NCBI GenBank assembly: GCA_022823665.1
Contig: JAJEHN010000037.1
Coordinates: forward strand, 115,439 to 179,438
Reading direction: 5' to 3'
From: Thermoanaerobaculia bacterium
GTDB lineage: Bacteria > Acidobacteriota > Thermoanaerobaculia > Multivoradales > Multivoraceae
Length of the DNA: 64,000 nt
Positions 4,088 to 29,340 of this stretch are shown here, piece by piece (within the stretch, counting starts at the first letter, position 1; every line of letters starts with the position of its first letter). The position numbers and the translations under genes were made by a program. A model generated the notes under the pieces. The model had not been told where the DNA came from. It made no database searches and was given only the letters and a program-made list of their open reading frames with translations.

Positions 4088-4117
4088 TGCGGTCGCCGCT
4101 TCGCGGCGCGTCTTCCT

Positions 4118-4164
4118 GGCCGCCTGCGGCGGCAGCGGGTCAGAAGACCCGCGCACCTACCGGA
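4118..4164. repeat. twin-hairpin REP-like element / probable bidirectional terminator (copy 1), between convergent pruA and fprA
   Basis: GCCGCC-tgc-GGCGGC (4119-4133) and GCGGGTC-agaa-GACCCGC (4135-4152), then GCACCTACCG. Its last bases supply the TAG stop of minus-strand fprA. A near-identical copy sits at 12186-12232. Confidence 0.7.
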
Positions 4165-5659: not shown

Positions 5660-5713
5660 AGCGTCGTACCGGCCGGCGCGGTTCCAGAGTGTGACAAGCC
5701 CGGTCGGCGGCAG

Positions 5714-5738
5714 TTGTCAATACGGCTAACTGTTGACA
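5714..5738. promoter_or_regulatory. inverted repeat TGTCAA-N12-TTGACA in the AT-rich divergent fprA / hypothetical-gene intergenic region; -35-like hexamers
   Basis: Sequence cagTTGTCAAtacggctaactgTTGACAtgattagacat. The only AT-rich patch in this GC-rich region. TTGTCA-N17-CATGAT is a possible sigma70-like promoter for the + strand gene. Confidence 0.4.
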
Positions 5739-5810
5739 TGATTAGACATACGCTGCTCCGGACCGCTCGGTCAAGCGGACCGCGGTGGGGAAACTCTGGG
5801 GGAGAATGCC

Positions 5811-13055: not shown

Positions 13056-13079
13056 TGCACAACTATAGCCAATCGTGCA
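13056..13079. promoter_or_regulatory. palindrome TGCAC-N14-GTGCA in the divergent M23 peptidase / amidase intergenic region
   Basis: Sequence ttGCACaactatagccaatcGTGCAt, immediately upstream of the minus-strand start at 13055. Confidence 0.25.
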
Positions 13080-13174
13080 TAGGCGAGCCCGGATGCGAGG
13101 GCGGTCATGCGGGGAGGACGCGGTACGCTTGGCCTCTTGTGCGGCGATCGGTTGCCGCGTCGGAGAGGTGCTCC

Positions 13175-14629
13175 GTGAGTCTGAGAGCGACGTATCTGGC
13201 CAGCGACGGGCTGGCGCTGGCCGAACTGCTGAGGACCGGCGAGCTGGCCCCGGCCGAGGCGGTCGAGTGCGCGGCCGAGATCGCTTCGGAACTGAACGGA
13301 GACCTGAACGCGGTCGTCTGTTCGGACTTCGAGCGCGCCGCCGCCGGCGCGGCCGAGGCCGTGGCGGCGGGTGGGCCGTTCGCGGGCGTGCCCTACCTGC
13401 TGAAGGACCTCTATGCGAACGCGGTGGGCTTGCCGCTCACGAACGGCAGCCGGCTCTTCGAGGGCAGCGTGCCGGACCACGACTCGGAGATGGTGAGCCG
13501 CTACCGGCAGGCAGGGCTCCTGATCGCGGGACGGACGGCTTCGCCCGAGTTCGGGCTGACGACCAGCACCGAGTCCGCGGTCTTCGGGCAGACGCGCAAC
13601 CCCTGGAACCTGGAGCACATCGCCGGCGGTTCCTCGGGCGGCGCCGCGGCGGCCGTCGCCGCCGGCATCGTGCCGGCCGCCCACGCCAGCGACGGCGGCG
13701 GATCGATCCGCATCCCGGCCTCGTGCTGCGGACTCTTCGGACTCAAGCCGAGCCGGGCCCGGGTCTCGCTGGCGCCCGACGCCGGCGAGGGTTGGGCCGG
13801 ATTCTCGGTGCAGCACTGCGTGAGTCGCAGCGTTCGCGACAGCGCCGCGCTTCTCGATGCGGTTGCGGGTCCGGTGGCGGGAGATCCGTACTGCGCGCCG
13901 CCGCCCGAACGGAGCTTCCTCGAGGAAACCGGGCGCGAACCGGGACGGCTGCGGATCGCGCTGGCCCTGGAGGCGTTCAACGGCGCCCCGGTAGAGGAGG
14001 CGTGTGCCGCGGCGGCCCGCGGAGCGGCCGAGCTCTGCGTGCGACTCGGGCACGAGGTTGCCCACGCGGTGCCGGAGATCGACGCGAACGCGCTCGGCCT
14101 CGCGACCCGGCTGATCGTCGGCGCGAACGTGCGCGCCACGATCGCGGAGCGCTGCGAGGTTCTCGGCCGCGACGCCCGGGAGGACGAACTGGAGCCGCTC
14201 ACCTGGGCGACGGCCGCCACGGGCGAGCAGAGCGACGCCGCCGCCTACGCGCGGGCGACCCGCACGGTTCACGCCGTGGGACGCCGGCTGGCCGCGTTCT
14301 TCGACGAGGGCTTCGACGTGCTGCTGTCGCCGACGATGGCGGCGCCGCCGGCGAAGCTCGGCGTGCTGTCGCTTTCGAACCGGGGCGACGACTATCTACC
14401 GGCCTTGCTGCAGACGATCGGTTTCACCCAGTTGATGAACGTCTGTGGTAATCCCGCCGCCTCGGTGCCGCTCGGCTGGAGCGGGGCGAACGGCGGTCTG
14501 CCGGTCGGCGTCCAGATCGCCGCGCCGTTGGGCGGCGAGGGAGTGCTGCTCCGGCTGGCGGCGCAGCTCGAGCGGGAGCGTCCCTGGATCGACCGGAAGC
14601 CGCCCTGCTCGGCGTGGCGGAGCGGCTAG
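13175..14629 (+). CDS. amidase (amidase-signature family)
   Basis: GTG 13175 preceded by GGAGAGG. AS motifs GGSSGGAAAAVAAG and GGSIRIPAS; family Ser-cisSer-Lys residues present. Confidence 0.85.
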   Translation: MSLRATYLASDGLALAELLRTGELAPAEAVECAAEIASELNGDLNAVVCSDFERAAAGAAEAVAAGGPFAGVPYLLKDLYANAVGLPLTNGSRLFEGSVPDHDSEMVSRYRQAGLLIAGRTASPEFGLTTSTESAVFGQTRNPWNLEHIAGGSSGGAAAAVAAGIVPAAHASDGGGSIRIPASCCGLFGLKPSRARVSLAPDAGEGWAGFSVQHCVSRSVRDSAALLDAVAGPVAGDPYCAPPPERSFLEETGREPGRLRIALALEAFNGAPVEEACAAAARGAAELCVRLGHEVAHAVPEIDANALGLATRLIVGANVRATIAERCEVLGRDAREDELEPLTWATAATGEQSDAAAYARATRTVHAVGRRLAAFFDEGFDVLLSPTMAAPPAKLGVLSLSNRGDDYLPALLQTIGFTQLMNVCGNPAASVPLGWSGANGGLPVGVQIAAPLGGEGVLLRLAAQLERERPWIDRKPPCSAWRSG

Positions 14630-14635
14630 GGAGCC

Positions 14636-15517
14636 GTGGCGCGGCCGCGGCAGACGACCTTGAAGCCCGCGAGTCTCGCGGCGCCGGCGCTTCTCGTCGC
14701 CCTTGCATGGCCGGCCGCGGCCGCCGAACCCCCCTGGCAGCGACTCGAGTTCGAGGCGAAGAAGCTGTTCCTCTCGGCGGGCGCCGCGGTCGAGTTCGAG
14801 CCCGCCGCGGAGGTCCCGGTGGACGAGCGCTGCGGAGGCAAGCCGGCGATGCCCGGTTCGGCCGCGCGGATCCGGATCGAGTCCACGATGTTCGGCCGTC
14901 GCTCGGAGTCCTCCCTGTGGTTCGATCCGGGCAGCCTGAAGGCCCATCTTCGCGTCCAGGAAGAAAGGGGCAGCCGGAACCGCTACAAGCGGTACACGTT
15001 CTGTGAGGGAAGCGTCGAGGCCGAGCGCGCGACTCCCAATCCTGGCGAGGCCGGTCTTCCGGTCGCGGAATGGACCCATCGTTATCCGCTCCATCATCCC
15101 GTTCCGCAAGGACTCGAGGCGCCGCTGTCGGAGCCCTCGGCGCTGCTCCATCTCGTCGGACGGCTGGCGGCGCTACCGTCCGGAGCAGGGGCGGAAACCC
15201 CGTGGACGGTGCCGATGTTCTCGAACCAGAGGGTGCTGGCGGTGCGGATCGAACGAGACCCGGAGACTCTGACCGCGCCTCCATCGTTCTCGGTGGCCGG
15301 CGGCGAGGCGCCGGCGCAGTTGACGCTCGTTCGTTTTTCGATGACGCCGGTGGCCTACGGGCCCGAGGGCGGTGCGGAGGACTTCGAGTTGCTGGGGCTC
15401 GAGGGCGCGATCGAGATCGTGGCGGCGAAGGAACTCCAGGTGCCCGTGTCGATCAGCGGTCGCCTTCCGCCCGCGGGGCGGGTCGCGGTCCGGCTGCGCC
15501 ACGTGAAGTTGCGTTAG
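14636..15517 (+). CDS. hypothetical secreted protein
   Basis: Signal peptide LAAPALLVALAWPAAAAEP. No recognisable motifs. Packed between the amidase (6-bp gap) and the regulator (1-bp gap). Confidence 0.5.
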   Translation: MARPRQTTLKPASLAAPALLVALAWPAAAAEPPWQRLEFEAKKLFLSAGAAVEFEPAAEVPVDERCGGKPAMPGSAARIRIESTMFGRRSESSLWFDPGSLKAHLRVQEERGSRNRYKRYTFCEGSVEAERATPNPGEAGLPVAEWTHRYPLHHPVPQGLEAPLSEPSALLHLVGRLAALPSGAGAETPWTVPMFSNQRVLAVRIERDPETLTAPPSFSVAGGEAPAQLTLVRFSMTPVAYGPEGGAEDFELLGLEGAIEIVAAKELQVPVSISGRLPPAGRVAVRLRHVKLR

Positions 15518-15518
15518 G

Positions 15519-16187
15519 GTGCCGAGCGTGGGGGCTGAAGGCGCCGAGAGTGTGGATCGGGTTCGCGAGGAGTTCGTGCAACTCTGGGGCGCTCTGGGTA
15601 CTTTCTGGGGCGTGCCGCCGACGACCGCGCGCGTCTTCGGCTGGCTGATGTCCCGCAGCGAGCCCGCCGATGCGCAGGAGATCATGGCCGGTCTGGAACT
15701 CAGCCGCGGCGCCGTCTCCATGGCCTGCAGGGAGCTGCGGGAATGGAAGCTCATCGCGCCGGAGCGCGTTGCCGGCGCGCGCCGGGTGGTCTATCGGCCC
15801 GAGACCGACCTGGAGCGGGTCCTCCGGAACGTCGTCGAGATTCGCAAGCGGCGTGAGTGGGACCCGATACGTGAGAACATGCGGGACTGGATTCCGGCGC
15901 TGGAGGCCCAATCCTCCAGTGAGAGCGGACCCTCTCCCGAGAATGCGGTGTTCCTCAGACGCCTGCGGGCGATCGACCAGGTCATGGGACGGGTGGACTC
16001 GATCGCGGAGTTTCTCCTCAACGGAGGCACGGTGACGGACTTCGGGCTGAAAGCCCTGCTGGGGGCCGGGGCGGTCGCCGCGCGGCTCGGCAACCTCGCC
16101 CGCCGCGAGGCGCAGTCCTTCTCGGGCAAGTCCGCCCCGCCGGCGGAGCCGGTGCCGGAACTCGACCCGGAGGAGCAGAAGAGTTGA
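15519..16187 (+). CDS. winged-helix transcriptional regulator (GbsR/MarR-like)
   Basis: N-terminal pattern VREEFVQLWGALGTFWGVPPTTARVFGWLM...ADAQEIMAGLELSRGAVSMACRELREWKLI, typical of GbsR/MarR-type wHTH. Confidence 0.5.
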   Translation: MPSVGAEGAESVDRVREEFVQLWGALGTFWGVPPTTARVFGWLMSRSEPADAQEIMAGLELSRGAVSMACRELREWKLIAPERVAGARRVVYRPETDLERVLRNVVEIRKRREWDPIRENMRDWIPALEAQSSSESGPSPENAVFLRRLRAIDQVMGRVDSIAEFLLNGGTVTDFGLKALLGAGAVAARLGNLARREAQSFSGKSAPPAEPVPELDPEEQKS

Positions 16188-17356
16188 CGGTGCTCACGGA
16201 TCGCCCGGCTGGGCCCCTGTCGAGAAACACGGCCGTGGAAGACGAGGTGCTCGGACGCCTCCGCGACCTCTGCGACGTCGGCGGCCTCCAGGGCCTTGCC
16301 GCGACGATCGATGACCTGGTCGGTTTCGTCCGCGACGATCTCGCCGCGGTCGAGGAGGGACTGGCGGCCCTGTCGACGGGAGACACGCTGGTCGGCGAGG
16401 CCGGAGCCTCCCTTGTACACCTCGGCGGCAAACGGTTGCGTCCGCTGTGCGTTGTCCTGGCGTCGCGGGTCGGGTCCGCGCGGCCTTCGGCGGTGCGCGA
16501 CATCGCGGTGGCGGCCGAACTCGTCCACAATGCCACGCTGCTGCACGACGACGTCGTCGACCACGCGGACCGGCGTCGCGGACGGCCGACGGCGCGGGTC
16601 GAACTCGGCAACGCGGCTTCGATCTTCGCCGGCGACTACCTGTTGATCGAGGCTCTCAACAGGGTGCAGCGCGCCGCGGTCCCGGGCGTCATGGAAGGCC
16701 TGCTCGAGACGATCGCCGAGATGATCCGGGCCGAATCCCTTCAGCTCGAGAACCGCGGCTCTCTTGACGCCTCCGAGGACCTCTACTTCGAGGTGGCCCG
16801 CGGCAAGTCGGCGGCGCTGTTCAGTTGGGCACTGGGCGCCGGCGCCTTGAGTGGCGGAGCGCCGCCCGAACTCTGCCGGGCGCTTCGCGTGTACGGGGAG
16901 TCGATCGGGGTCGCGTTCCAGTTGATCGACGACCTGCTCGATCTGGTCGGACACCACAGCAACACGGGCAAGACCCTGTTCAGCGATCTCTCGGAGGGGA
17001 AGATCACCTATCCGCTGATCGTCGTGCTGGATCGCGAACCCGCGCTCGCCGACACGATCCGCGCGATAGCCGCCGAGGCGACTCCGGCGTGGGGCGCCGA
17101 TGGTCTCGGTCCGGGGTACTCCGGCTCGAACGGCGATGGTTCGGCGAACGGCCACCCGGGCGGCGCGAACGGGGCGGGCCGGGAGCGTGAGCGCGTGCTC
17201 GAGGCGATGGTCCGCCACAACGTCGAAGCGACTTGCCGGGACCTCGCCGCGAGCTACATAGACGAAGGGATCGAGGCGCTGGCAAAGGTCCCCGACGGCG
17301 CCGCGCGCCGTGCGCTGACGGTTGTTGCCCGGGCGAGCGTGCTGCGGGAACGATGA
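16184..17356 (+). CDS. trans-polyprenyl diphosphate synthase (menaquinone side chain; IspB/HepT-like)
   Basis: Two Asp-rich motifs LLHDDVVDH and FQLIDDLLD. Immediately upstream of menG. Confidence 0.85.
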   Translation: MTVLTDRPAGPLSRNTAVEDEVLGRLRDLCDVGGLQGLAATIDDLVGFVRDDLAAVEEGLAALSTGDTLVGEAGASLVHLGGKRLRPLCVVLASRVGSARPSAVRDIAVAAELVHNATLLHDDVVDHADRRRGRPTARVELGNAASIFAGDYLLIEALNRVQRAAVPGVMEGLLETIAEMIRAESLQLENRGSLDASEDLYFEVARGKSAALFSWALGAGALSGGAPPELCRALRVYGESIGVAFQLIDDLLDLVGHHSNTGKTLFSDLSEGKITYPLIVVLDREPALADTIRAIAAEATPAWGADGLGPGYSGSNGDGSANGHPGGANGAGRERERVLEAMVRHNVEATCRDLAASYIDEGIEALAKVPDGAARRALTVVARASVLRER

Positions 17357-18114
17357 TGGCGCTGGCTGAGCCGCTGGCGGGCCCGAGCGACGGTTCGGGC
17401 GCGATGTTCGACCGGATCGCCGCTCGCTACGACCTGCTGAATCGCCTCAACTCCCTGGGCTTCGATCAGGCGTGGCGCCGGATCGCAGCGGAGGCCCTGG
17501 CGCCGGCCGTGGCCGCCAACCGGCCCCCGCGCGTGCTCGATGTTGCCTCCGGAACCGGAGACCTTGCGATCGCGATCGCGCGACGGTTTCCCTCGGCGGT
17601 CGTCGAGGGTGTCGACACCTCGACCGCGATGACGGTGATCGGACGAGGGAAAGTGGAGCGCGCCGGCCTCGCCGACCGCGTCACGCTGGCTTCCGGCGAC
17701 GCTCACGAGCTTGGCTTCCCCGATCGCGCCTTCGACGCGGCGGCGATCGCGTTCGGCATCCGCAACGTCCCTGACCGGGTCCGGGCGCTGCGCGAAATGG
17801 CGAGGGTCACCCGGCCGGGCGGCCGGGTCGCGGTTCTCGAGTTGAACGAGCCGACTTCCGGCCTGCCTGCCGCTCTCGCGCGCTTCCACATCCGCGTCCT
17901 CGTGCCACTGATCGGGGCGCTTCTGGCCGGGAGCGAAGAGTACCGCTACCTGCGGCGGTCCATCCACGCCTTCCCGCCGCCGGACGAGTTCGCTGGCACG
18001 ATGGCCGCCGCCGGCCTGCAGCCGGTCGAGACGCGGCCTCTGACGTTCGGCGTGTGCAACCTGTTCCTGGCCAGTCCGGCGTTGGAACGTGCCACGGAAA
18101 GCGCCCGTTCGTGA
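17353..18114 (+). CDS. menG: demethylmenaquinone methyltransferase (UbiE/MenG)
   Basis: ATGATG overlap with the previous stop. SAM motif LDVASGTGDL. Family-typical N-terminus FDRIAARYDLLNRLNSLG. Confidence 0.85.
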   Translation: MMALAEPLAGPSDGSGAMFDRIAARYDLLNRLNSLGFDQAWRRIAAEALAPAVAANRPPRVLDVASGTGDLAIAIARRFPSAVVEGVDTSTAMTVIGRGKVERAGLADRVTLASGDAHELGFPDRAFDAAAIAFGIRNVPDRVRALREMARVTRPGGRVAVLELNEPTSGLPAALARFHIRVLVPLIGALLAGSEEYRYLRRSIHAFPPPDEFAGTMAAAGLQPVETRPLTFGVCNLFLASPALERATESARS

Positions 18115-19622
18115 CGTCTCCGGCGATCAGGCCGCGTTCGAGTCGCGAGACGCGTGCTCCGCGGTCCGGGCTCGTGGCGGTGGCCGTCGAGGCGCCGAAA
18201 GTAGCTCCCGAGGAGTTTCTCCGGATGGCCTCGCGGCGCTTCCGTGAGATCGGGCCGGTGGGCCACCTGTGGTCGCCGTCCGGCGGGATCCAGTGCGCCG
18301 GCTGGGGCGTGGCCCGGCGGTTCGAAATCGCCGGCCAGGCGCCGTCCGGCGGGTTCGCGGGCGGGAACGGCGATGGCGGTCCCGAGGCCCCCGCGGACGG
18401 TGTCGCGCTCGACCAGGTTGCGGCGCAGGCGTCCGGGCTGTTTCGCGAACTGGCCGGTGCGGACGATGTGCCGTTGCGGCTCTTCGGCGGGCTCGCGTTC
18501 GATCCTGGATCGGACCGCGCCGGCTCCAGGGCGTCCGACTGGACCGAGTTCGGCGCCGGGAGCTTCGTGCTGCCGCGGCTGGGCTACCTCGCTGACGGGG
18601 ACGCCGCACATCTGTATGCGGTCATTGACGGGACCGCGGTCGGGGCGTCGCCGGAGTGGCGCCGGCGTCTGCGGCGGCTGGCGGAAGACCTCGACCCCGC
18701 CGGCGGCCTCGGAAGCGGCGCGAACGGCAACGGGCACCTGGGAGAGTTGCCGGAAGCGGCCAGGACCCTGGAGGCCCTCCCTGGAATCCTGCGGAGCCTC
18801 GATCGCCCGGCAGCCTCGGAGTGGCTCCGGCGCGTTGAAGAGCTGCGCGGAGAAGTGCTCTCCGGACGGCTGCAGAAGGTCGTCGCGGCGCGCGCCGTCG
18901 AGCTCGACCTCGACCGGCAGTTCGGCATCGACGACCTGGCCCGGATCGCCGGGCGCCTGCGGCAGAGCATGCCGACATGCACCTGCTTCGCCTTCCTGCG
19001 AGGCGGCTCGATCTTCTTCGGAGCGACGCCGGAACTGCTGGTCCGTCGCCGGGGCCGCCGGATCGAGACACAGGCGCTGGCCGGTTCGATCGCTGGCGAC
19101 CCCTCGCCCGCGCGGCGGCGCGAGTTGGAGCGGCGTCTGCTGGAGAGCCGGAAGGACCGGCTGGAGCACGATGTCGTCGTGCGCTATCTCGTCGAGCGCC
19201 TCGACCGGAGCTGCGGCGCCGTAGCGCCGCCGGCCCCTCGGGGGGTGCGCGTCCTGCCGAACGTGATGCACCTGGAGACGCCGATTCGCGCCGCGCTGCC
19301 GGAGACCGTCGAGCCGCCGCACGTGCTGCGGCTGGTGCGGGCGCTCCACCCGACCCCCGCGGTCGCCGGCAGACCAACGCCTCTCGCCCTGGCCGCCATC
19401 CGACGTACCGAAGAGCGGGATCGGGGCTGGTACGCGGGTCCGGTCGGCTGGTTCGACGGCAGCGGCGATGGCGAGTTCTCGGTCGCTCTCCGTTCCTGTC
19501 TCGCGACCCGGCGTCGAGGCCTGCTCTACTCGGGCAACGGCATCGTCGCCGACTCCGATCCCGCGCGCGAGCTGGTTGAGACGAACCTCAAGCTGGACGC
19601 GATTCTCGGAGCATGGGGCTAG
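18111..19622 (+). CDS. menF: isochorismate synthase (menaquinone-specific)
   Basis: Chorismate-binding C-terminus GATPELLVRR, LHPTPAVAG, WYAGPVGW. Start is either GTG 18111 (GTGA overlap with menG) or ATG 18225. Confidence 0.75.
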   Translation: MTSPAIRPRSSRETRAPRSGLVAVAVEAPKVAPEEFLRMASRRFREIGPVGHLWSPSGGIQCAGWGVARRFEIAGQAPSGGFAGGNGDGGPEAPADGVALDQVAAQASGLFRELAGADDVPLRLFGGLAFDPGSDRAGSRASDWTEFGAGSFVLPRLGYLADGDAAHLYAVIDGTAVGASPEWRRRLRRLAEDLDPAGGLGSGANGNGHLGELPEAARTLEALPGILRSLDRPAASEWLRRVEELRGEVLSGRLQKVVAARAVELDLDRQFGIDDLARIAGRLRQSMPTCTCFAFLRGGSIFFGATPELLVRRRGRRIETQALAGSIAGDPSPARRRELERRLLESRKDRLEHDVVVRYLVERLDRSCGAVAPPAPRGVRVLPNVMHLETPIRAALPETVEPPHVLRLVRALHPTPAVAGRPTPLALAAIRRTEERDRGWYAGPVGWFDGSGDGEFSVALRSCLATRRRGLLYSGNGIVADSDPARELVETNLKLDAILGAWG

Positions 19623-21430
19623 CGGGAGCCGGCGCGGGCGAAGCGCAGTTTCAGCGAGCGCGGCTACTGGTCGGCGCCCTGATGCGGGCCGGCGTCCGGC
19701 GGGCCGTCACGAGCCCGGGTTCCCGCTCGACGCCGCTGGTGCTGGCGGCGCTCGATGCGGCGGCGGCCGGGCTGGACGTCGCCAGTGTCATCGACGAGCG
19801 GGCGGCCGGGTTCTTCGCGCTCGGTCAGGCACGGGCCACGGGCGTGCCGACGGTCCTGATCTGCACTTCGGGGACGGCGCCGGCCCACTACCTGCCGGCG
19901 ATGATGGAAGCCCGCGAGGCCGGGGTTCCGCTGATCGCCCTGACTGCCGACCGACCGATGGAGTTGATGGACTGCGGGGCGCCGCAGACGACCGACCAGA
20001 CGAAGATCTTCGGTTCGGTCGTCAGCCACTTCGCCGAGGTGGATCTAGCGGGTCCGGTCGATCCGCTGAGCCTGCGTGCGCTTCGTCGGACGGCCGTGCA
20101 GGCGGTGTTCCGTTCCCGCTTGCCGCGCGGTGGCGCGGTTCACCTGAACGTGCGGGCGCGCAAACCGCTGGAGCCGGAGGTGGATGCCAAGGACGGTGCG
20201 CTCGCGGCTGCCGTTGACGCTCTGCTCGAGGAGCCGGTCGAAGCGGCTGTGCCCGCGGCGCAACCGGATCCGGCGGCGCTGGATCGGGCGGCGGCGTTGT
20301 GCCGGCGAGCGGAGCGCGGGCTGATCGTCGCCGGTCCCTTGCCTCTTCCGTCGCCGGACTGCCGACGGGACGCTGACGCCTGGGGTCTGGCGAAGCTCGC
20401 GCGGCGGACAGGCTTCCCGCTACTCGCGGAAGCCACGAGTCAGGGCAGGTTCACGGAGGGAGACACCGCGGCCGACGCCGCGCGGCTCGGAGCGGCCTGG
20501 ATAGCCGACGGCGGAGAAGGCCTGCCTCTTCCGGACCTGGTTCTGCAGGTCGGAGCGCCGCCGGTCGCGGCGGGCGCTCAGCGCCTGATCGAGGCCGCGG
20601 GGGCGCGTCAGATCGTGCTGTCGGACGGTCCCTGGACCGATCCGGACGGACTCGCTTCGGTGTTTCTGTTCGGAGGTGTCGAACGCTCGGTTGCCGGACT
20701 CTGTCGACGACTCGGGGATGCGAAGCCGAGTACTGAGGCAGCCGGCTGGCGGGAGGAGGTTCTCGCATTGTGCGGGCGATTTCGGGCGGCGGTGGCGCGA
20801 CTTGACTCCGACGATCTCGGGTTTCATGACGGGGAAGCGGCCGGAACGGCGGTCGCGGCAACGCCGGCGGACACGCTCCTCATGCTGGGCAACAGCCTGC
20901 CCGTGCGCCTGGTCGAAACCTGGGCCGCGCGTCCGGGCCGCCGGATCTGGGTTGCGAGCCAGCGGGGGTTGAGCGGGATCGACGGGTTGGTTGCGGGCTT
21001 CCTTGGTTCGCTTGGTACCGGTGACTTCCCGGCCGGCCTGCTGCTCGCGGGCGACGTCAGCCTGCTGCACGATCTCGACGGTCTGGCGATCGCTCCCGAG
21101 TACGGCGACGGTCCGCCGGCCGTGGTCGTGGTGATCGACAACCAGGGCGGACGGATCTTCGACCGGCTCCCGATCGCGAAGGCCGGGATCTTCCGTGGCC
21201 CGGCAGGCAGGCACTGGTTGACGCCTCACGGGGTCGACTTCGGCGGCCTGGCGCGTGCGTTCGGCGTACCTTACGCACGAGTGGAAGATGCCCCGGCGCT
21301 CGCGCGGGAGATCGAGTCGGCCCTCGGTCGGAGAGGCGTTTCCCTGGTCGTAGCGGGGGTCGCCCCCGGGGCTCTGGCGACGGCGGAGGAGTCGCTGCGG
21401 CAGGCCATGGGTGCGTCGTCGTCGCGATGA
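19613..21430 (+). CDS. menD: 2-succinyl-5-enolpyruvyl-6-hydroxy-3-cyclohexene-1-carboxylate synthase
   Basis: Collinear with E. coli MenD: SPGSRSTPL, ICTSGTA, LTADRP, GNSLPVR, GASGIDG-like GLSGIDG, VIDNQGGRIF. Confidence 0.85.
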   Translation: MGLAGAGAGEAQFQRARLLVGALMRAGVRRAVTSPGSRSTPLVLAALDAAAAGLDVASVIDERAAGFFALGQARATGVPTVLICTSGTAPAHYLPAMMEAREAGVPLIALTADRPMELMDCGAPQTTDQTKIFGSVVSHFAEVDLAGPVDPLSLRALRRTAVQAVFRSRLPRGGAVHLNVRARKPLEPEVDAKDGALAAAVDALLEEPVEAAVPAAQPDPAALDRAAALCRRAERGLIVAGPLPLPSPDCRRDADAWGLAKLARRTGFPLLAEATSQGRFTEGDTAADAARLGAAWIADGGEGLPLPDLVLQVGAPPVAAGAQRLIEAAGARQIVLSDGPWTDPDGLASVFLFGGVERSVAGLCRRLGDAKPSTEAAGWREEVLALCGRFRAAVARLDSDDLGFHDGEAAGTAVAATPADTLLMLGNSLPVRLVETWAARPGRRIWVASQRGLSGIDGLVAGFLGSLGTGDFPAGLLLAGDVSLLHDLDGLAIAPEYGDGPPAVVVVIDNQGGRIFDRLPIAKAGIFRGPAGRHWLTPHGVDFGGLARAFGVPYARVEDAPALAREIESALGRRGVSLVVAGVAPGALATAEESLRQAMGASSSR

Positions 21431-22200
21431 CGACGGCCGTCCTGATCCACGGCTTCTCGGGTGGTCCGGCCAGCTGGCGGCAGGTGGAAGCGCTGCTCGA
21501 CGCGCCGAGCCACGCGCTGGCGGTCTGTGGTCATGGTGGCGAAAGTCCGCCGGCGATCTCCACGGGCTCGGCGGCGTTCGAGGTCGAGGTCGATCGGCTG
21601 GCGGCCGCCGTCGAGGCCGAAGTGCCGGCGCCTCGCCTCGTGGTTGGCTACTCCCTGGGGGGGCGGCTGGCTCTCGGCCTGCTGGTCCGTCGCCCGGACC
21701 TGTTTCGCGGCGGCGTTCTGATCGGCGCGAACCCGGGCATCGCCGGCGAGGACGTCCGCGTCGCTCGCCGGCGCGACGACGACCGCTGGGCTCGGCTCAT
21801 CGAGGAAGAGGGCCTCGCCTCCTTCGACAGCGGGTGGTCGGCCTTGCCTCTGTTCGCCAGTCAGCACGACCTGGATGCCGGACGGCTGGCGGAGCAGCGG
21901 CGTACTCGCCTCAGCCACGATCCCGCGGCCCTGGGGGCGGCGATGAGAGCGCTCGGTCTCGGCGCCATGCCGGACTACCGACCCTTCCTGTCCTCGATCT
22001 TCTGCCCGGTCGAATTGATCGTTGGCAGTCTGGACTCGAAGTTCGTCGGTCTGGCGCGACAGATGGCCGGACGCCTTCCGGTCGCCACGGTCCGCATCGT
22101 CGACGGAGTTGGCCACAATGTTCCACTGGAGGCGCCCGCCGAGCTGGCCCGGCTCCTGAACGCGACCCTGGGCAAGGTTGATCGGGACCGCCGGTGCTGA
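21427..22200 (+). CDS. menH: 2-succinyl-6-hydroxy-2,4-cyclohexadiene-1-carboxylate synthase (alpha/beta hydrolase)
   Basis: [15 protein letters not shown] nucleophile elbow, C-terminal GHN. Collinear with E. coli MenH. Confidence 0.8.
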
Positions 22201-22246
22201 TGGCGCGGCCCGTTGTAGTGTCGCCGATCGAAGGAGGCGGGAGGGG

Positions 22247-23095
22247 ATGAGCGGAGAATCGCACCAGGAATGGCGGAGCGGCGGTGACTACACGGACATC
22301 CGCTACGAGAAGTCATACGTCGACGGCGAGCCGGAGGGGATCGCCAAGATCACGATCAACCGGCCGGAGGTGCGCAACGCCTTTCGGCCGCTGACGGTCC
22401 AGGAGATGAGCGCGGCGGTCGACGTGGCCCGCGATGACGGCGAGGTCGGCGCGGTGATCCTGACCGGCGAAGGGCGCAGCGCCTTCTGTTCGGGTGGCGA
22501 CCAGCGCATCCGGGGCGATGCCGGCTACGTCGGCGACGACGGCGTGCCGCGCCTGAACGTCCTCGACCTGCAGCGTCAGATCCGCACGTTGCCCAAGCCG
22601 GTCGTGGCGATGGTCGCCGGCTACGCGATCGGCGGGGGCCATGTGCTGCACATGGTCTGCGATCTGACGATTGCCGCCGACAACGCCCGCTTCGGCCAGA
22701 CGGGGCCGCGGGTGGGCAGCTTCGACGGCGGTTACGGCGCCTCGTACATGGCGCGGATCGTGGGTCAGAAGAAGGCGCGGGAGATCTGGTTCCTGTGCCG
22801 CCAGTACAACGCCCGGCAGGCGCTGGACATGGGCCTCGTCAACACGGTCGTCCCGCTCGACCGGCTGGAACAGGAGACCCTTCAGTGGTGCCGGGAGATG
22901 CTGGCCAACAGCCCGATGGCGCTCCGCTGCCTGAAGGCGGCGATGAACGCCGACTGCGACGGTCAGGCCGGCCTCCAGGAGCTGGCGGGGAACGCGACCC
23001 TGCTGTTCTACATGACGCAGGAGGGCCAGGAGGGCCGGCAGGCGTTCCTGGAGAAGCGGAAGCCGGACTTCTCGAAGTTCCAGCGATACCCATGA
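22247..23095 (+). CDS. menB: 1,4-dihydroxy-2-naphthoyl-CoA synthase
   Basis: ATG 22247 after AAGGAGGCGGGAGGGG. Crotonase fold: [29 protein letters not shown], terminal [10 protein letters not shown]. Confidence 0.9.
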
Positions 23096-23994
23096 GCCCG
23101 GGCGAGCGCCGCCCCGGCAACCTGGGGGCGTGGGCGCAGGCGATTCGTCCGAAGACGCTGTGGGCGGCGGTGACGCCGGTTGTGGTCGGCTCAGCCTGCG
23201 CGATGTCCGTATCGGGCTTTCGGCTCGGTCCGGCCTTGGCCGCGCTGGGCGTCGGCGTCTTCATCCAGATCGGCACGAACCTGTCGAACGACGTGCTCGA
23301 CTTCGATCGCGGCGCCGACACGGAACGCCGGGTCGGGCCAGTGCGGGCGGTGCAATCGGGGCTGCTCGGCCGCGGCCAGGTGTGGGTCGGGGCGTGGATC
23401 GCCTTCGGTCTCTGCGTGGTTTGCGGGCTCTACCTGGCGGCGGTCGCGGGCTGGCCGGTGCTGGTAGTCGGCGCTGTTTCGATCGCATCGGGGCTGCTGT
23501 ACACGGCCGGCCCCTGGGCGCTGGCCTATGTCGGCCTGGGCGACCTGTTCGTCTTCCTGTTCTTCGGTCTGGCCGCCGTGGTCGGCACGGCGTACGTCCA
23601 GGCGCTGGAAGTCCCGGCCGTCGCCTGGTGGGCGGCGGTCGCCGTTGGCGCCCTGGCCACGGCGATCCTCGTCGTGAACAACCTTCGCGACCGCGAGACG
23701 GACGCGGCGGCCGGCAAGCGGACGCTGGCGGTGCGCTTCGGCGCGCGCTTCACGCGGCTGGAGTACGCGGCGCTGCTGCTGGCCGGGCATGCCGCTGCCC
23801 TGCCGCTGGTCGTCCGCTTCGGTCCGTGGCCCCTGCTGTCGTGGCTGGCTCTGCCGTTCGCGGTCGCCGTGCTGCGGTCCGTGTGGCACGGCGAGGGCGC
23901 GGCCCTCAACCTGGCGCTGGCGGCGACCGCCCGCCTGCTTCTCCTGTTCGGCGTCCTCCTGTCGATCGGCATCGTGCTGGGGGCCCGGCACTGA
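23092..23994 (+). CDS. menA: 1,4-dihydroxy-2-naphthoate polyprenyltransferase
   Basis: ATGA overlap with menB. UbiA-fold membrane protein: [11 protein letters not shown] and NNLRDRETD motifs, about 8 TM helices. Confidence 0.85.
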
Positions 23995-25448
23995 GCGACG
24001 CACTCTCGGTTCGGGCGGCAGGGCGTGAAGCACCCGCCGGGACGGCGCTGGTCGACGGTGGCCATCAGGTCGGCTGGGCGGAGCTTGCGGAGCGGGTGGA
24101 TCGGACGCGAGACGCGCTGCGTCCACGGCTCGACGAACTGGACGCGCCGGTCGTCGCCGTCGTTGGGGGCACGGGGCCCGACACCGTGGTCAACCTTCTC
24201 GCGCTGCTTGAGGACCGGGTCTCGTTCGTGCTGATCCATCCCCGGTGGACACGCGCCGAACGCGACCGCGCGATCGGGATGGCCGGAGCCTGCCTGTGCC
24301 TGGAGAGTGGCGGAGCCCTGGCCACGATGCCGGCGCCCGCCGCGGTCGGCAACCCGAGCGTCGGCCGGGGCGCTGCGATCGTCTTCACTTCCGGCACGAC
24401 GGGTCGGCCGCGGGGCGCGGTTCTCAGCCGGGCGGCGCTGCGCGCGTCGGCGCTCGCGCATGGACGGGTCCTGGGCTGGCGCGCCGGCGACCGCTGGGTC
24501 CTGAGCTTGCCGACGGCTCATGTGGGCGGCCTGATGATCGTCGTTCGCTGCCTCCACGCGCGGCGGACGGTGGTCGTGGGTGGACGTCGGGCTTCCGGGA
24601 GCTTCGATGTCGCCGAAACCCTTCGGGTCGTCGAACGCGACCGGATCACGCTTCTGTCCGTCGTGCCGACGATGCTCGCGCGGCTTCTTCATGCAACCAG
24701 GCGTCCGCCGCCGAGCCTGCGGGCCGTGCTCGTGGGCGGCGCCGGCGCTCCGCCGGCCCTGATGGAGCGGGCCAGAGAAAGCGGCTGGCCGGTGTTCGCG
24801 ACCTACGGGTTGACGGAGGCCTGTTCCCAGGTCGCGACGGAACGGCCGGGCGAGACGCCTGGAGGGGTGGGTGCGCCGCTGCCCGGGATCGAGGTGCGGG
24901 TTGCGGCTCCGGACGGGTTCGCCGGCACGATCCAGGTGCGGGGCCCCATTCAGGTCAGGGGAGAGAGCCTGTTCGACGGCTATCTGGGCGCGGAACCGGG
25001 GGCGCCGCTCGAACGGCCGTTCGAGGCGGACGGCTGGTTCGATACGGGCGACCTGGGTGCGATCGGCGAGGACGGCCGACTCCGGGTGGTGGGTCGAAGC
25101 TCCGACCGGATCGTGAGCGGGGGCGAGAACGTCGATCCCGCGGAAGTCGAAGCGGCCGTCGTGGAGTGGCCCGGCGCGGCGGCCGCCTGCGTGGTCGGTC
25201 TGGAGGACGAGGAGTGGGGCGAAACGGTGGGCGCCGTCCTGGTCCCGGCCGTCGGTTTCGAGTCCCTTGGCGGGCTGGCCGGACTCGGGAGGCACCTGGG
25301 GGGACGTCTCGCCGGGTTCAAGCGGCCGCGGTGCTGGCGTGTCGTGGATGGGCTGCCGATGGCCGCTTCGGGCAAGGTGGACCGAAGCGCCTGCGTTCGA
25401 CTCCTGGTCGAGTCGCCAGGCCCGCGGGCGGGGCGGGACGGACAGTGA
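23991..25448 (+). CDS. menE: o-succinylbenzoate--CoA ligase
   Basis: AMP-binding motifs TSGTTGRPRG, YGLTE, GWFDTGDLG, SGGENV, GKVDR. Region VGWAELAERVD aligns to the E. coli MenE N-terminus. No ATG/GTG/TTG upstream of it; nearest in-frame starts are CTG 23991 or GTG 24096. Confidence 0.75.
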   Translation: MSDALSVRAAGREAPAGTALVDGGHQVGWAELAERVDRTRDALRPRLDELDAPVVAVVGGTGPDTVVNLLALLEDRVSFVLIHPRWTRAERDRAIGMAGACLCLESGGALATMPAPAAVGNPSVGRGAAIVFTSGTTGRPRGAVLSRAALRASALAHGRVLGWRAGDRWVLSLPTAHVGGLMIVVRCLHARRTVVVGGRRASGSFDVAETLRVVERDRITLLSVVPTMLARLLHATRRPPPSLRAVLVGGAGAPPALMERARESGWPVFATYGLTEACSQVATERPGETPGGVGAPLPGIEVRVAAPDGFAGTIQVRGPIQVRGESLFDGYLGAEPGAPLERPFEADGWFDTGDLGAIGEDGRLRVVGRSSDRIVSGGENVDPAEVEAAVVEWPGAAAACVVGLEDEEWGETVGAVLVPAVGFESLGGLAGLGRHLGGRLAGFKRPRCWRVVDGLPMAASGKVDRSACVRLLVESPGPRAGRDGQ

Positions 25449-26836
25449 CTGTCGACGCCGCGGTCGCGGAGTTCCGGGACCGACTCGACCTCGAGCGGCG
25501 GCTCCGGCCCTTCGAAGCGCTTCGCTATCGGGCGAGCGACGCGGGGACCAGGGCCGTGCACCTGGACGACTTCGCCGCGATCCCGTTCCTCGACGGCGTG
25601 AGCGGCGTCGAGCACTACCAGCACAGGGCCCGGCTGCGGGCGCGGGGAGGCGACTGCTATGTAGCCTCGACGCCTGGGTCAGCCGGCTACGAGCGCTACT
25701 GCCGGGAGGTCCTCGGTCTCGGCGCGGTGGAGCTTCTGGCGGTCGACCCTGCGGGCGATCGGCTCGCGATCGCCCCCGCCTGCATGGAGAACCGCCCGCT
25801 TCTGGACCGGCTGGGAGCGCTTGCCCGCCGCGGGGGCCTCGTGGTCGAGCCCTTTCTCGGCGCCGAGGCGATCTGGGATCTGGCGGCGGCCGTTGCCGCC
25901 GAAACCGGCGCCCGGGTGCGGGTGCTGGCGCCGCCGCCGCCGGTGACCTGGATCGCCAACGACAAGGCGAACTTCGAGGACCTCGTCACCGCGGTCCTCG
26001 GTCCCGGCTTTCTGCCCGAAAGCCGCCGGTCGGCTTCGCCGGAAGCGCTGGCCCGCGCGCTGCTCGAGCTCTCGGAAACCGGTCCGTCCGTGGCGCTCAA
26101 GCGGCTGCGCTGCGCTTCGGCGATGGGCAACGAGGTGTTCGAGTCCGCGGCGCTGCGTCGCCGCGGACTCTCGGGCACATTGGACATCGTCCGGGATTTC
26201 CTCGAGAGGACCGGTTGGGAGGGCGGCGAGGACGTACTCGCGGTTCGCTGGGAGCAGGCGACATCGTCTCCTTCGACCCAGTGGTGGCTGCCGCCCCCTG
26301 GTGGCGGGGAGCCGACGCTCGACGGCGTCTACGAGCAGATCCTGGCCGGAGAGGAGGGTGTCTTCGTTGGCAGCCGGCCGAGTGGACTGGCGGCGGAGGT
26401 GGAGGAGCGGATCGTGTTCCAGTCGGGGCAGGTGGCGGACGCGCTGCAGCGGCTGGGCTACGTCGGCCGCTGTTCGTTCGACCACCTGGTGCTGGCGGAC
26501 GGACGAGTCGTGTTCACGGAGTGCAACGGCCGCTGGGGCGGCACGAGCACGCCGATGAGCCTGGTCGACCGGCTTTACCCGGGTGGCCGCCCGCCGTACC
26601 AGGCGCAGGCCTTCGTTCACCCGGGACTCACGGGGACCACGTTCGGGCAGCTCCTGGCGCGTTTGGGCGACGCCGTGCACGACCGCGGCTCGGGAGCCGG
26701 CCGGTTCCTGCTCTACAACGTGGGACCGCTGGCGCAGTTCGGCAAGTTCGATGTCGTGACGCTGGGCTCGAGCCGCGCCCACGTCGAGGAACTGATGACC
26801 CGGGAACTCCCGCGCCGGCTCGGGCTGGGAGCCTGA
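25445..26836 (+). CDS. hypothetical protein, ATP-grasp-like C-terminal half (ExNxR motif ECNGRWGG)
   Basis: GTGA overlap with the menE stop (GTG 25445). 463 aa, no men-pathway signature. ECNGRWGG fits the ATP-grasp Mg-binding E-x-N-x-R; GRCSFDHLVLADGRVVFTECN fits an ATP-grasp core strand. Confidence 0.5.
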   Translation: MTVDAAVAEFRDRLDLERRLRPFEALRYRASDAGTRAVHLDDFAAIPFLDGVSGVEHYQHRARLRARGGDCYVASTPGSAGYERYCREVLGLGAVELLAVDPAGDRLAIAPACMENRPLLDRLGALARRGGLVVEPFLGAEAIWDLAAAVAAETGARVRVLAPPPPVTWIANDKANFEDLVTAVLGPGFLPESRRSASPEALARALLELSETGPSVALKRLRCASAMGNEVFESAALRRRGLSGTLDIVRDFLERTGWEGGEDVLAVRWEQATSSPSTQWWLPPPGGGEPTLDGVYEQILAGEEGVFVGSRPSGLAAEVEERIVFQSGQVADALQRLGYVGRCSFDHLVLADGRVVFTECNGRWGGTSTPMSLVDRLYPGGRPPYQAQAFVHPGLTGTTFGQLLARLGDAVHDRGSGAGRFLLYNVGPLAQFGKFDVVTLGSSRAHVEELMTRELPRRLGLGA

Positions 26837-26864
26837 GCCGCGGGATGCAGCGCGGCGGGCCCGG

Positions 26865-27179
26865 CTAGCCGTCGTCGCGGAGGCTGCGGTCGAGCGCCTC
26901 GCTCATCTGGCGCAGGCGCTCCGCTTCGACTGGCGACAGTACGCCGCCGTCCTGGCAGGCCTCGATCGTCGAGGTCATCTCGTTCAGCCGGTCGAGCGCC
27001 TCGTCGGTCGACCCGCGTCGCTCGGGCGCCGCGTGAGCCGCCGCGAACAGCAGGGTCGACAGCGTGAGAGCAAGTCGGCGCAGACGCTGCCGCGGCGGCG
27101 CCGGGACGGATTCCGGCTCGGCGGTCGCGTCGTAGACGTCCGCCAGCAGGATGCGCGAGATCGCGTATGCGTCCTTCAC
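26865..27179 (-). CDS. small hypothetical protein (hydrophobic segment, C-terminal coiled region)
   Basis: GTG at 27179, 8 nt after the apaH TAA stop. RRLALTLSTLLFAAAHAAP hydrophobic stretch. Only the 3' end of a 334-aa GC-shadow ORF is considered real. Confidence 0.25.
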   Translation of the reverse strand: MKDAYAISRILLADVYDATAEPESVPAPPRQRLRRLALTLSTLLFAAAHAAPERRGSTDEALDRLNEMTSTIEACQDGGVLSPVEAERLRQMSEALDRSLRDDG

Positions 27180-27187
27180 CTCATTGG

Positions 27188-27997
27188 TTACAACGAACGG
27201 GAGGCCCGGTTGGTTTCCGGCAATCGATCGATCACCTTCTTCTGCAGGACGCGCCGGTCTTCGAGCCGGATTGCGGTGAGCCCCGCACCCCAGACGCAGC
27301 CGCTGTCGAGGGTAATCAGGTCGGGTCGCAGGCGGAGTCCGAGGGCGGCCCAGTGACCGGCGACGGCCGTATGGTCCGGGCAGCTCCGCGGCGCCACGTC
27401 GAACCAGGGTCGGAGTCCTGCCGGCGCTTCCTCGAGAGGGCCGCTGTAGTCGTGGGGTCGGCCTTTCCCGTCGAGCATCCGCATGCGGGTGAACGCCGCC
27501 AGCGACTTCTTGTTCCGGCGGCACAGCAGGCTCTTCGCCTTCGGGCCGCGGAGCTTTCGTTCGAGCCGCCTGGCCGCCTCGGTGACGTCCTCTCTGGACC
27601 AGCCGGGCCGCAGCCCCGCGTGGACGAGGACGTGGTCGCGTCCTGCGATCCGTTCGAAGTGAACGAAGGGCCGCCGGCGCAGCCAGTCGACCAGTTCGGG
27701 TGCGTCCGCCGCCTTGAGGGCCTTCTTCAGGGTGTCTCGCGGTTTCTTGCTGGTCACCCCAAGGTGCCGCGCGATCAGGTGCAGGTCGTGGTTTCCGAGC
27801 ACGACCTGGAACCGATCGCCCATCTCGGCGTCCAGCGTGCGCGCCCAGCGCAGCGTCTCGAGTGAGCACGGTCCCCTGTTCACCAGGTCGCCCACCATCC
27901 AGAGGCGGTCCCTCCGGACGTCGAACTCCATTCGGCCGAGCAGGGCCTGGAGCGTTCGGAAGCAGCCGTGGACGTCGCCGATCGCCCAGGTCGCCAC
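27188..27997 (-). CDS. apaH: bis(5'-nucleosyl)-tetraphosphatase, symmetrical
   Basis: GTG 27997 (VATWAIGDVHGCF...), 11 nt after the upstream gene stop. Metallophosphatase motifs GDVHG, GDLVNRGP, GNHD. The longer 508-aa ORF extension is rejected. Confidence 0.8.
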   Translation of the reverse strand: MATWAIGDVHGCFRTLQALLGRMEFDVRRDRLWMVGDLVNRGPCSLETLRWARTLDAEMGDRFQVVLGNHDLHLIARHLGVTSKKPRDTLKKALKAADAPELVDWLRRRPFVHFERIAGRDHVLVHAGLRPGWSREDVTEAARRLERKLRGPKAKSLLCRRNKKSLAAFTRMRMLDGKGRPHDYSGPLEEAPAGLRPWFDVAPRSCPDHTAVAGHWAALGLRLRPDLITLDSGCVWGAGLTAIRLEDRRVLQKKVIDRLPETNRASRSL

Positions 27998-28008
27998 CGG
28001 ATTCCCTG

Positions 28009-29340
28009 CTAGTCGACGATGGCCTGGTACGTCAGGCTCTGAAGATCCTGGCGGATGTTCAGGTGCGTGTACGGCCGGACCTGGGTCATCAGGATGCCGA
28101 TCAGTTCCTCTTCGGGATCGACCCAGAACACGGTGCAGAAGGCGCCGCCCCAGGAGTACGACCCGACCGATGCCGGCATGGCCGAGGCGCCCTTGTCCGT
28201 CACCACGCTGTAGCCGAGGCCGAAGCCGTAGCCGGGACCGCGCAGCCAGAGGCCGTGGTCGCCGGTGTGGTTCGACGTCATCAGTTCGATCGTCTTGCGG
28301 CCCAGGATGCGGTTGCCGTCCAGCTCGCCGCCGTTCAGCATCATCTGGTGGAAGCGGTAGTAGTCGGCGGCGGTGGAGACCAGGCCGCCGGAGCCGCTGA
28401 AGTACTTGTGCGGTTCGCGCACGTGCCGGGCGTTCACGTCCGGGGCCTCGGTGAGGACGATCCTGCCGTCCTCGCCGGGCCGGTAGAGCGCTGCGAAGCG
28501 GCCGACCTTCGACTCGGGCAGGTAGAAGTAGGTGTCGACCATGCCCAGAGGCTCGAAGATGCGCTCCTTCAGGTACTCGTCGAGAGTCCGGCCGGACAGC
28601 ACCTCGACCATTCGCCCGACGACGTCGACGGAAGGGCCATACTGCCAGGCGTCGCCGGGGTGGAACTCGAGTGGCAGTTCGGCGAGGGCGGTGACGAAGT
28701 CGCCGACGGTCCACTCGGGATCACGATTCGTCCGCAGCTTCGTGTAGTCCGCGTTGAGCAACCCGCGATAGTTGTTCGCGAAACCGGCGGTGTGGGTCAG
28801 GATGTGCTGCACCGTGATCGGCCGCGCGGCCTGGACCAGCTTGTACGGCGCGCCCAGGTACTCGTCGGCGTCCGGCACCACGGCGACCTGCATCTCGGCG
28901 AACTCGGGCAGGTACTTCGCGATCGGATCGCGGAGCTGGAACCGGCCCTCTTCGTAAAGGGTCATCAGCGCCACGGAAGCGATCGGCTTGGTCATCGACG
29001 CGATCCGGAAGATCGTGTCCCGGGTCATGGGGGCGCCCTGCTCGGGCCAGCGTTCGCCCTGGGCCTCGAAGTGAACGACCTTGCCGCGGCGGGCGACCAG
29101 GCTGACGGCGCCGGCGATCTGCTTGCGGTCGATGTAGCCGGCCATCGTTTCGGACAGACGCTCCAGGCGCTCGCTCGACATGCCGGCGCTCTCGGGCTCG
29201 GCGATCGGTAGCGGAGCAGGCGCGGACTGGTCGGCGGCTGTAGCCGGCGGAGCGGCCGCCAGGGCGCCGGCGAGGAAGCCTCCGAGGAGGAACGCGGCGG
29301 CGGACAGCATCGGGACACGGTTGCGTTGGTCGAGGTTCAT
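28009..29340 (-). CDS. serine hydrolase, beta-lactamase family (class C/PBP-like), secreted
   Basis: Signal peptide. SMTKP (SxxK), YGP (YxN-like) and HTGD motifs. Forms an operon with apaH. Confidence 0.85.
   Translation of the reverse strand: MNLDQRNRVPMLSAAAFLLGGFLAGALAAAPPATAADQSAPAPLPIAEPESAGMSSERLERLSETMAGYIDRKQIAGAVSLVARRGKVVHFEAQGERWPEQGAPMTRDTIFRIASMTKPIASVALMTLYEEGRFQLRDPIAKYLPEFAEMQVAVVPDADEYLGAPYKLVQAARPITVQHILTHTAGFANNYRGLLNADYTKLRTNRDPEWTVGDFVTALAELPLEFHPGDAWQYGPSVDVVGRMVEVLSGRTLDEYLKERIFEPLGMVDTYFYLPESKVGRFAALYRPGEDGRIVLTEAPDVNARHVREPHKYFSGSGGLVSTAADYYRFHQMMLNGGELDGNRILGRKTIELMTSNHTGDHGLWLRGPGYGFGLGYSVVTDKGASAMPASVGSYSWGGAFCTVFWVDPEEELIGILMTQVRPYTHLNIRQDLQSLTYQAIVD

Follow-up and report, generated by a model that had tools for sequence, protein, structure and literature searches.

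The men operon and its terminal ligase gene

The stretch of DNA analysed here, referred to as the window, is 64,000 nucleotides long (contig JAJEHN010000037.1 of assembly GCA_022823665.1, positions 115,439 to 179,438 of the forward strand). Its host is a Thermoanaerobaculia bacterium like Candidatus (Ca.) Multivorans, a sponge-symbiont acidobacterium, and the window shares 95% identity with Ca. Multivorans / Thermoanaerobaculia metagenome-assembled genomes (MAGs). A classical menaquinone (men) operon lies on its plus strand, and the subject of this report is the last gene of that operon, which encodes an ATP-grasp ligase and overlaps the stop codon of menE, the gene for o-succinylbenzoate-CoA ligase.

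25445..26836, plus strand: ATP-grasp ligase gene, 463 aa, final cistron of the men operon (uninterrupted open reading frame)
25445..25448, plus strand: GTGA overlap of the ligase GTG start and the menE TGA stop (read directly from the sequence)

In this overlap the ligase start codon occupies 25445-25447 and the menE stop codon 25446-25448. The in-frame extension upstream of 25445, which runs back to 24245, gives a meaningless translation rich in R, G and P and overlaps menE in another frame, and 25445 is thus the sensible start; homologues of the ligase in the close clade share this start position. Long overlapping open reading frames (ORFs) are numerous in a window with 69% GC, so that a chance ORF, or else a decaying pseudogene, had to be considered. 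This reading is effectively refuted: the codon-position GC of the ligase gene (0.76/0.53/0.87) is the same as that of the operon genes and carries the coding signature at the third position (GC3), its homologues number more than 1000 and keep an invariant catalytic set, and the fold is predicted with confidence.

The genes around the ligase are as follows.

15519-16187, plus strand: MarR (Pfam)
16184-17356, plus strand: polyprenyl synthase, IspB (Pfam)
to 18114, plus strand: UbiE/MenG (Pfam)
to 19622, plus strand: MenF (Pfam)
19613-21430, plus strand: MenD (Pfam)
21427-22200, plus strand: MenH (Pfam; the best NCBIfam hit is also MenH)
about 22250-23095, plus strand: MenB (NCBIfam, above cut-off)
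to 23994, plus strand: MenA, UbiA family (Pfam)
24096..25448, exact start uncertain, plus strand: menE, o-succinylbenzoate-CoA ligase (Pfam AMP-binding and AMP-binding_C)
26865..29340, minus strand: convergent downstream genes, namely a 104-aa ORF, a Metallophos gene and a beta-lactamase-family gene (gene calls of locus L082, tblastn conservation)

The order MarR-IspB-MenG-MenF-MenD-MenH-MenB-MenA-MenE-ligase agrees with the gene calls of L082, a 95% identical locus. The best NCBIfam match of menE is TIGR01923 menE, under its cut-off, and MenE homologues are 450 aa long. The window ORFs that were scanned, among them every one of plausible MenC size, yielded no MenC (o-succinylbenzoate synthase); none belongs to the enolase superfamily. 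A first-pass annotation, made from the letters alone, had placed a 463-aa ORF at the end of the series polyprenyl synthase-menG-menF-menD-menH-menB-menA-menE, overlapping the menE stop and coupled to menE. All of this holds: the translation is free of internal stops, GTGA is present, the overlap is conserved across the clade, and Pfam and NCBIfam agree on the upstream genes, which are preceded by the MarR gene.

Since the downstream genes are convergent, the ligase ORF is the terminal cistron. As read from the DNA, the ligase is co-transcribed with the men genes, given the GTGA overlap, the shared strand and the convergent genes downstream, and it is predicted to be translationally coupled to menE in the Multivorans clade. 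A consensus scan of 15000-27500 gave no promoter-like site; the sole terminator-like match was weak and lay inside the operon at 23538-23554, and there were fewer such matches than in shuffled sequence. A 6-bp GC hairpin (GCCGCG / CGCGGC, 8-nt loop) with no T-run lies at 26837-26856, in the 28 nt that separate the ligase stop from the stop of the convergent gene; the consensus scan did not call it a terminator. Pfam confirms the beta-lactamase-family gene in the window itself, and a large peptidase gene is also found downstream. Directly upstream of MarR, two ORFs (13010-14629 and 14630-15517, plus strand) have the coding GC3 signature and no Pfam hit.

Fold and catalytic residues of the ligase

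The product of the gene is an ATP-grasp ligase with a complete catalytic set, which belongs to the structural clade of the pheganomycin peptide ligase PGM1 and of BesA, and which forms a separate, uncharacterised family. The parts of the gene that carry this assignment are listed here.

25622..25894, plus strand: pre-ATP-grasp domain, residues 60-150 (Pfam PF18604, E 1.6e-8, 35.4 bits against a cut-off of 27.5)
25964..25966, plus strand: codon of K174 (ANDK), the lysine of the linker that joins the pre-ATP-grasp and RAGNYA domains (N172, D173 and K174 invariant)
26090..26137, plus strand: VALKRLRCASAMGNEV, with the strand-2 lysine K219 and a glycine-containing flexible loop (invariant residues, hhalign)
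26456..26542, plus strand: GYVGRCSFD...FTECNGRWGG, with the putative Mg-ATP ligands D346, E359 and N361 (ExN motif) and R363 (invariant residues)

PF18604 was the only Pfam family found in the ligase, and searches of NCBIfam, PADLOC and PDB sequences returned no named family, only PRK06849, as a weak hit, and a match over 55 residues to PGM1 and 8YND, a Streptomyces "ATP-grasp peptide ligase". This match (E 1.8e-4 for 8YND, profile E 5e-3 for PGM1) is limited to residues 326-379, around the ExN motif, and HMMER aligned the ExN region of the ligase to that of both proteins. The predicted structure, in turn, is a confident ATP-grasp fold with BesA, PGM1 and 8YND as its nearest structures, and these three are clearly set apart from other ATP-grasp clades. 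It has the three-part architecture of the superfamily: a pre-ATP-grasp N-domain, a RAGNYA central domain and a protein-kinase-like C-domain. Neither close structural or sequence similarity to graspetide macrocyclases of the MdnC/PsnB/CdnC type, whose products are peptides made on the ribosome and modified after translation (RiPPs), nor an adjacent precursor peptide was found.

When 20 ligase sequences, down to 50% identity, are aligned, about 100 columns prove invariant. Among these are K174 (ANDK) and K219 (VALKRLRCASAMGN); the latter is followed by a small-residue/glycine loop (LKRLRCASAMGN), and K219, R220, R222, S225, G228 and N229 are all invariant. The residues that define ATP-grasp catalysis, including the linker-lysine criterion, have been listed (PMC4431377), and those listed are all present and invariant in the ligase, namely K174, K219 with its loop, D346 and E359-C-N361. 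With hhalign, the K219 stretch paired with VIVKPSREGSSVGM of E. coli DdlB, and D346/E359/N361 paired with RID...LLEAN of the same enzyme, in which the spacing of 13 residues between D346 and E359 is the same; the alignment is not statistically significant. The DdlB residues in the paired motifs are K144, D257, E270 and N272. Eleven arginines are also invariant, which suggests an anionic substrate. From its residues, the enzyme is very probably an active ligase, which would form an acyl phosphate.

No homology to the known Men enzymes (MenA-I) was found for the ligase. We conclude that it is not a core Men enzyme, because the family is uncommon, its members mostly lie apart from men genes, and one sister operon has none of them. 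The first-pass annotation had read the protein as ATP-grasp-like, of the pre-ATP-grasp/PGM1 kind and without a classical Men signature, and had quoted two motifs, GRCSFDHLVLADGRVVFTECN and ECNGRWGG, which are indeed residues 341-361 and 359-366. Two of the checks that it proposed, a search with hidden Markov models and a structure prediction, bear this out with PF18604 above its cut-off, an ATP-grasp fold, and the ExN motif aligned to PGM1 and 8YND.

Distribution of the family

The family comprises 883 clusters at 50% identity with E <=1e-3, or 291 clusters with E <=1e-30, and all source names seen among the homologues are "hypothetical protein". A pattern scan found a relative in at least 330 of 185,579 GTDB species representatives. 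The 80 best-matching loci come from Acidobacteriota (Thermoanaerobaculia/Ca. Multivorans, Vicinamibacterales and Holophagae), Myxococcota-type MAGs and a few Planctomycetota. Some distant members on short contigs are fused to other domains (P0143, P0223 and P0152), with either an N-terminal B12-binding radical SAM domain (983 aa) or a hemerythrin domain at either terminus.

Linkage to menE in three lineages

For the neighbourhood analysis, 80 loci from genomes, 80 from metagenomes and several others were fetched and searched with the Men proteins of the window over a range of 10 kb. All loci with a ligase of at least 70% identity (about 40, forming the Multivorans clade) carry the same men operon, and 32 of about 38 of these loci retain an RTGA overlap of ligase and menE, across identities of 70-96%. 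Deeper in the clade, identity of the ligase is about 70-75%, while the medians of MenF, MenD, MenH and MenG are 65-70%; only MenB (94%) is therefore clearly better conserved than the ligase.

Two further lineages have the ligase beside men genes. The first is a Holophagae population represented by two independently assembled MAGs (loci L047 and L081, 99.8% nucleotide identity), in which MenE and the ligase form a single in-frame fusion of 981 aa (L081 6081-9026, L047 1390-4884). This fusion ends an operon of the order UbiE-MenF-MenD-MenH-MenA, which has neither MenB nor MenC. In the second lineage (L054) a DUF4407 gene stands between the end of the men operon and the ligase. In a neighbour-joining tree, the fusion and L054 lineages group neither with the Multivorans clade nor with each other, the deep branches being poorly resolved. 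A single 937-aa ORF in a chromosome-level MAG assembly of Ca. Multivorans (L030, 8576-11389) was considered as a further MenE-ligase fusion and is not counted here; it may reflect a frameshift error, and GTGA is still present at the junction.

Some loci of the Multivorans clade also vary in gene content. On one Multivorans chromosome (L023, about 2500-6670), a block of ~4 kb with a 1390-aa ORF lies between menH and menB, and ORFs of 131-155 aa with no Pfam hit lie at the same place in L009, L022 and L024. These extra ORFs were considered as a possible MenC or a recognisable thioesterase and rejected; they have no Pfam hit. A variable insertion of 3-5 kb is found between the downstream neighbours of the ligase in L001, L007, L011, L012, L021-L024, L028, L030, L031 and L033, and where it is present the match to the beta-lactamase region shifts from ~12.6 kb to ~16.5 kb in locus coordinates.

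Ligase neighbours outside the men operons

Across 170 ligase loci there is no universally conserved neighbour, and the neighbours are lineage-specific. In loci of the Vicinamibacterales type, a bactofilin-like gene lies upstream of the ligase, an M20 amidohydrolase of the TIGR01891 type lies downstream on the same strand, and a rhodanese gene comes next. The amidohydrolase is 17-50 nt from the ligase in most of 19 such loci, the outliers being an 11-nt overlap and a 124-nt gap (the paired loci are L038-L078, L098 and L102). In a Proteobacteria-labelled MAG (L174) an M20 gene (8732-9880) is also adjacent to the ligase, in divergent orientation.

In the marine Myxococcota-type loci the neighbours are genes for an alpha/beta hydrolase, a 155-aa protein, a fatty-acid hydroxylase, an MR_MLE protein and a TrpB-like protein. 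The MR_MLE gene was considered as a link to MenC and rejected; by NCBIfam it is sugar-acid-dehydratase-like. Further loci have surroundings that resemble none of those described.

Sister men operons and MenC

Sister acidobacterial men operons were reached from MenE homologues. Two of them (L091 and L172) have the order ...MenH-MenA-MenC-MenE without the ligase, and L090 has a MenC-MenE pair, also without it; one more, L089, has neither gene. Counted by lineage, there are three with the ligase and without MenC, three with MenC and without the ligase, one with neither and none with both. This is suggestive of mutual exclusion of ligase and MenC next to MenE, in counts that are not statistically significant. 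MenB is also absent from the ligase-bearing operons of L081 and L054, and the men genes of these genomes must thus be scattered. On Multivorans chromosomes, no MenC homologue was found among the best 120 of 1046 hits, a result which is inconclusive.

Just after menE in L172, a Holophagales MAG, there are two tandemly spaced GC-rich copies of ~70 nt (about 4230-4440; GTGTCCTCCCAC.CCTCCGAGGGAGCGCCGGCGTCTCGCCGGCATCTGGG...). This element may be an intergenic repeat similar to repetitive extragenic palindromic elements.

A possible accessory role at the MenE step

We suggest, as the best explanation of these observations, that the protein is an ATP-grasp carboxylate-amine ligase with a lineage-specific accessory role at the MenE/o-succinylbenzoate (OSB) step; we hold this tentatively, with a probability of roughly 0.45. 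Judged from the superfamily, Mg-ATP would be held by K174, K219, D346, E359 and N361, and the carboxylate of the substrate would be phosphorylated to an acyl phosphate; an amine, most likely that of an amino acid, would then attack the acyl phosphate, yielding an amide, ADP and inorganic phosphate. As the terminal cistron coupled to menE, the ligase would be made together with the menaquinone enzymes, and at the MenE step, or close to it, it may ligate an anionic carboxylate of the aromatic or succinyl type in an accessory reaction. A conjugate of o-succinylbenzoate or naphthoate with an amino acid is a speculative example of such a product, and the M20 amidohydrolase that is paired with the family in other lineages could reverse it. 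MenE binds an aryl-succinyl carboxylate, and the TIGR01891-type amidohydrolase family includes hippurate and aryl-acyl-amino-acid hydrolases. We speculate that these two recurrent partners fit the synthesis of aroyl- or succinyl-amino-acid conjugates; the identity of the substrates and any effect on the quinone are equally speculative.

What speaks for an accessory role is linkage to menE in three acidobacterial lineages, in one of them as a fusion. Membership of the operon, the invariant arginines and the pairing with the M20 amidohydrolase also count in its favour. Several observations weigh against it. Only 3 of about 120 loci at 46-56% identity, from two lineages, have men genes within 10 kb, so that ~97% of the loci outside the Multivorans clade are without them, and the remaining contexts of the ligase are unrelated to quinones. 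L089 has the identical order MarR-IspB-UbiE-MenF-MenD-MenH-MenB-MenA-MenE, without the ligase and without MenC. Some 330 species is far below the number of menaquinone makers to be expected. We know of no classical menaquinone step that needs ATP-grasp chemistry, and a literature search found no paper that links ATP-grasp enzymes to menaquinone; searches on Ca. Multivorans, 8YND and BesA found nothing relevant either. The substrate proposal, finally, has gene neighbourhood as its one source. The first-pass annotation had suggested that the quinone head group could be altered, or that another kind of activation step could exist; linkage to menE in the three lineages and the fusion speak for this idea, and the scarcity of men genes around other family members and the ligase-free operon of L089 count against it.

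The same observations could mean that the protein is a free-standing housekeeping ligase that ended up after menE in an ancestral acidobacterium and was carried along from there, its substrates being unconnected with quinones; it might be a dipeptide or N-acyl-amino-acid ligase, or a modifier of protein C-termini. The lineage-to-lineage change from bactofilin-like, M20 and rhodanese genes to alpha/beta hydrolase, fatty-acid hydroxylase, MR_MLE and TrpB-like genes is what such an enzyme would show, and 50% identity across phyla together with the ~100 invariant columns would fit a universal substrate. However, the position after menE is found in three lineages, with ligases that share only ~54% identity and do not group in the neighbour-joining tree, the in-frame fusion to MenE is present in two assemblies, and the 4-nt overlap has been retained through 70-96% divergence; gene order seldom persists so long without selection. 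We regard this passenger origin as a real contender, and place the accessory role slightly ahead of it because repeated placement behind MenE and the fusion exceed what would be expected of a pure passenger.

A narrower proposal is that the ligase acts together with MenE on a carboxylate of the men pathway, either as a substitute for the MenC step or by making an amino-acid conjugate of OSB, 1,4-dihydroxy-2-naphthoate (DHNA) or isochorismate that M20 enzymes could reverse; in this specific form we find it doubtful. The first of these options, in which the ligase stands in for the missing MenC or otherwise feeds MenE, is improbable on its own. For it, one can point out that none of the three ligase-bearing men operons (window, L081 and L054) contains MenC, that in L091, L172 and L090 the ligase is missing and MenC directly precedes MenE, and that the fusion partner MenE is the enzyme that consumes OSB; the ligase might phosphorylate 2-succinyl-6-hydroxy-2,4-cyclohexadiene-1-carboxylate (SHCHC) on its carboxylate or 6-OH and so drive aromatisation to OSB. 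Yet dehydration of SHCHC needs no ATP, as is established chemistry, the operon of L089 has neither gene, MenC may lie elsewhere in L081 and L054, whose operons also have no MenB, and most family members are unlinked to men genes. The least probable of the readings that still concern an active enzyme is a PGM1-like peptide ligase of a natural-product or RiPP pathway, adding an acyl or amino-acid unit to a ribosomal peptide, which we think very improbable despite the nearest structures (PGM1 and 8YND) and the fusion of distant members to B12-radical SAM or hemerythrin domains. Neither a precursor peptide nor unusual-amino-acid genes nor a conserved biosynthetic cluster was found in the neighbourhoods of more than 170 ligase loci, so that the fallback of the first-pass annotation, a neighbouring peptide-modification gene, finds nothing in its favour; identity to PGM1 is 16-20%, with significant similarity over ~55 residues only, and the strong conservation across phyla is atypical of secondary metabolism.

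If an accessory role is correct, an ATP-grasp ligase that is coupled or fused to MenE would point to an accessory or replacement step that has gone unrecognised, or to a conjugated naphthoate or succinylbenzoate metabolite. Action on a men-pathway carboxylate, in either of the two forms considered above, would be a variant or branch of the classical pathway not known before in Acidobacteriota, a phylum that is uncultured, has been little studied and counts abundant sponge symbionts among its members. The enzymes of the classical men pathway are considered a complete set. The ligase itself has a known fold and a known general mechanism, while its coupling and fusion to MenE appear to be undescribed. 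Even if the ligase proves unrelated to quinones, a sizeable unannotated family (~290 clusters at 50% identity) now has its full catalytic set defined, and its two recurrent partners, MenE and the M20 amidohydrolase, give concrete substrate hypotheses.

An anti-phage system elsewhere in the window

PADLOC also identified an Hma (helicase-methylase-ATPase) anti-phage system at 34959-47119 on the minus strand, into which a further gene is inserted between HmaB and HmaA.

34959-37793, minus strand: HmaC/DUF499 (PADLOC E 3e-94)
37836-40916, minus strand: HmaB/DUF1156 adenine methylase (PADLOC E 1e-108)
41561-43678, minus strand: inserted GmrSD_N and Schlafen/AlbA_2 gene (HEC-05-like)
43742-47119, minus strand: HmaA SNF2 helicase with NOV_C (PADLOC E 6e-172)

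Comparison with known systems

Within the set of nearest structures, BesA (the L-propargylglycine-L-glutamate ligase of Streptomyces cattleya; PDB 8YI6) is like the ligase in fold, but is only 16% identical to it and gave no significant sequence hit; it also belongs to a cluster for a terminal-alkyne amino acid, whereas the ligase stands in a men operon or alone. PGM1 (PDB 3WVQ/3WVR) and 8YND share the fold and the ExN motif. PGM1, however, uses ribosomal peptide nucleophiles and is part of a biosynthetic cluster, and nothing comparable surrounds the ligase. An ATP-grasp protein of S. aureus, SAOUHSC_02373, has been crystallised with ADP and citrate (PDB 7R8P/7R8Q); it is 13% identical to the ligase and has no assigned function either.

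MenC, a member of the enolase superfamily, occupies the equivalent slot next to menE in L091, L172 and L090 and is absent from the ligase-bearing operons, but it is a metal-assisted dehydratase that works without ATP, and its fold and chemistry are unrelated to those of the ligase; L089 has neither gene. A further parallel comes from plants, in which GH3 acyl-acid amido synthetases (such as PBS3, which joins isochorismate and glutamate) and ILR1-type M20 amidohydrolases make and break conjugates of aryl carboxylates with amino acids. GH3 enzymes are adenylate-forming and not ATP-grasp enzymes, and the comparison, which is known here from genes alone, is best taken as a lead. The likeness would lie in the pairing of ligase and amidohydrolase, and in isochorismate, which is also the product of a MenF-type enzyme: the ATP-grasp ligase likewise pairs either with MenE and the men genes or with an M20 amidohydrolase of the TIGR01891 type.

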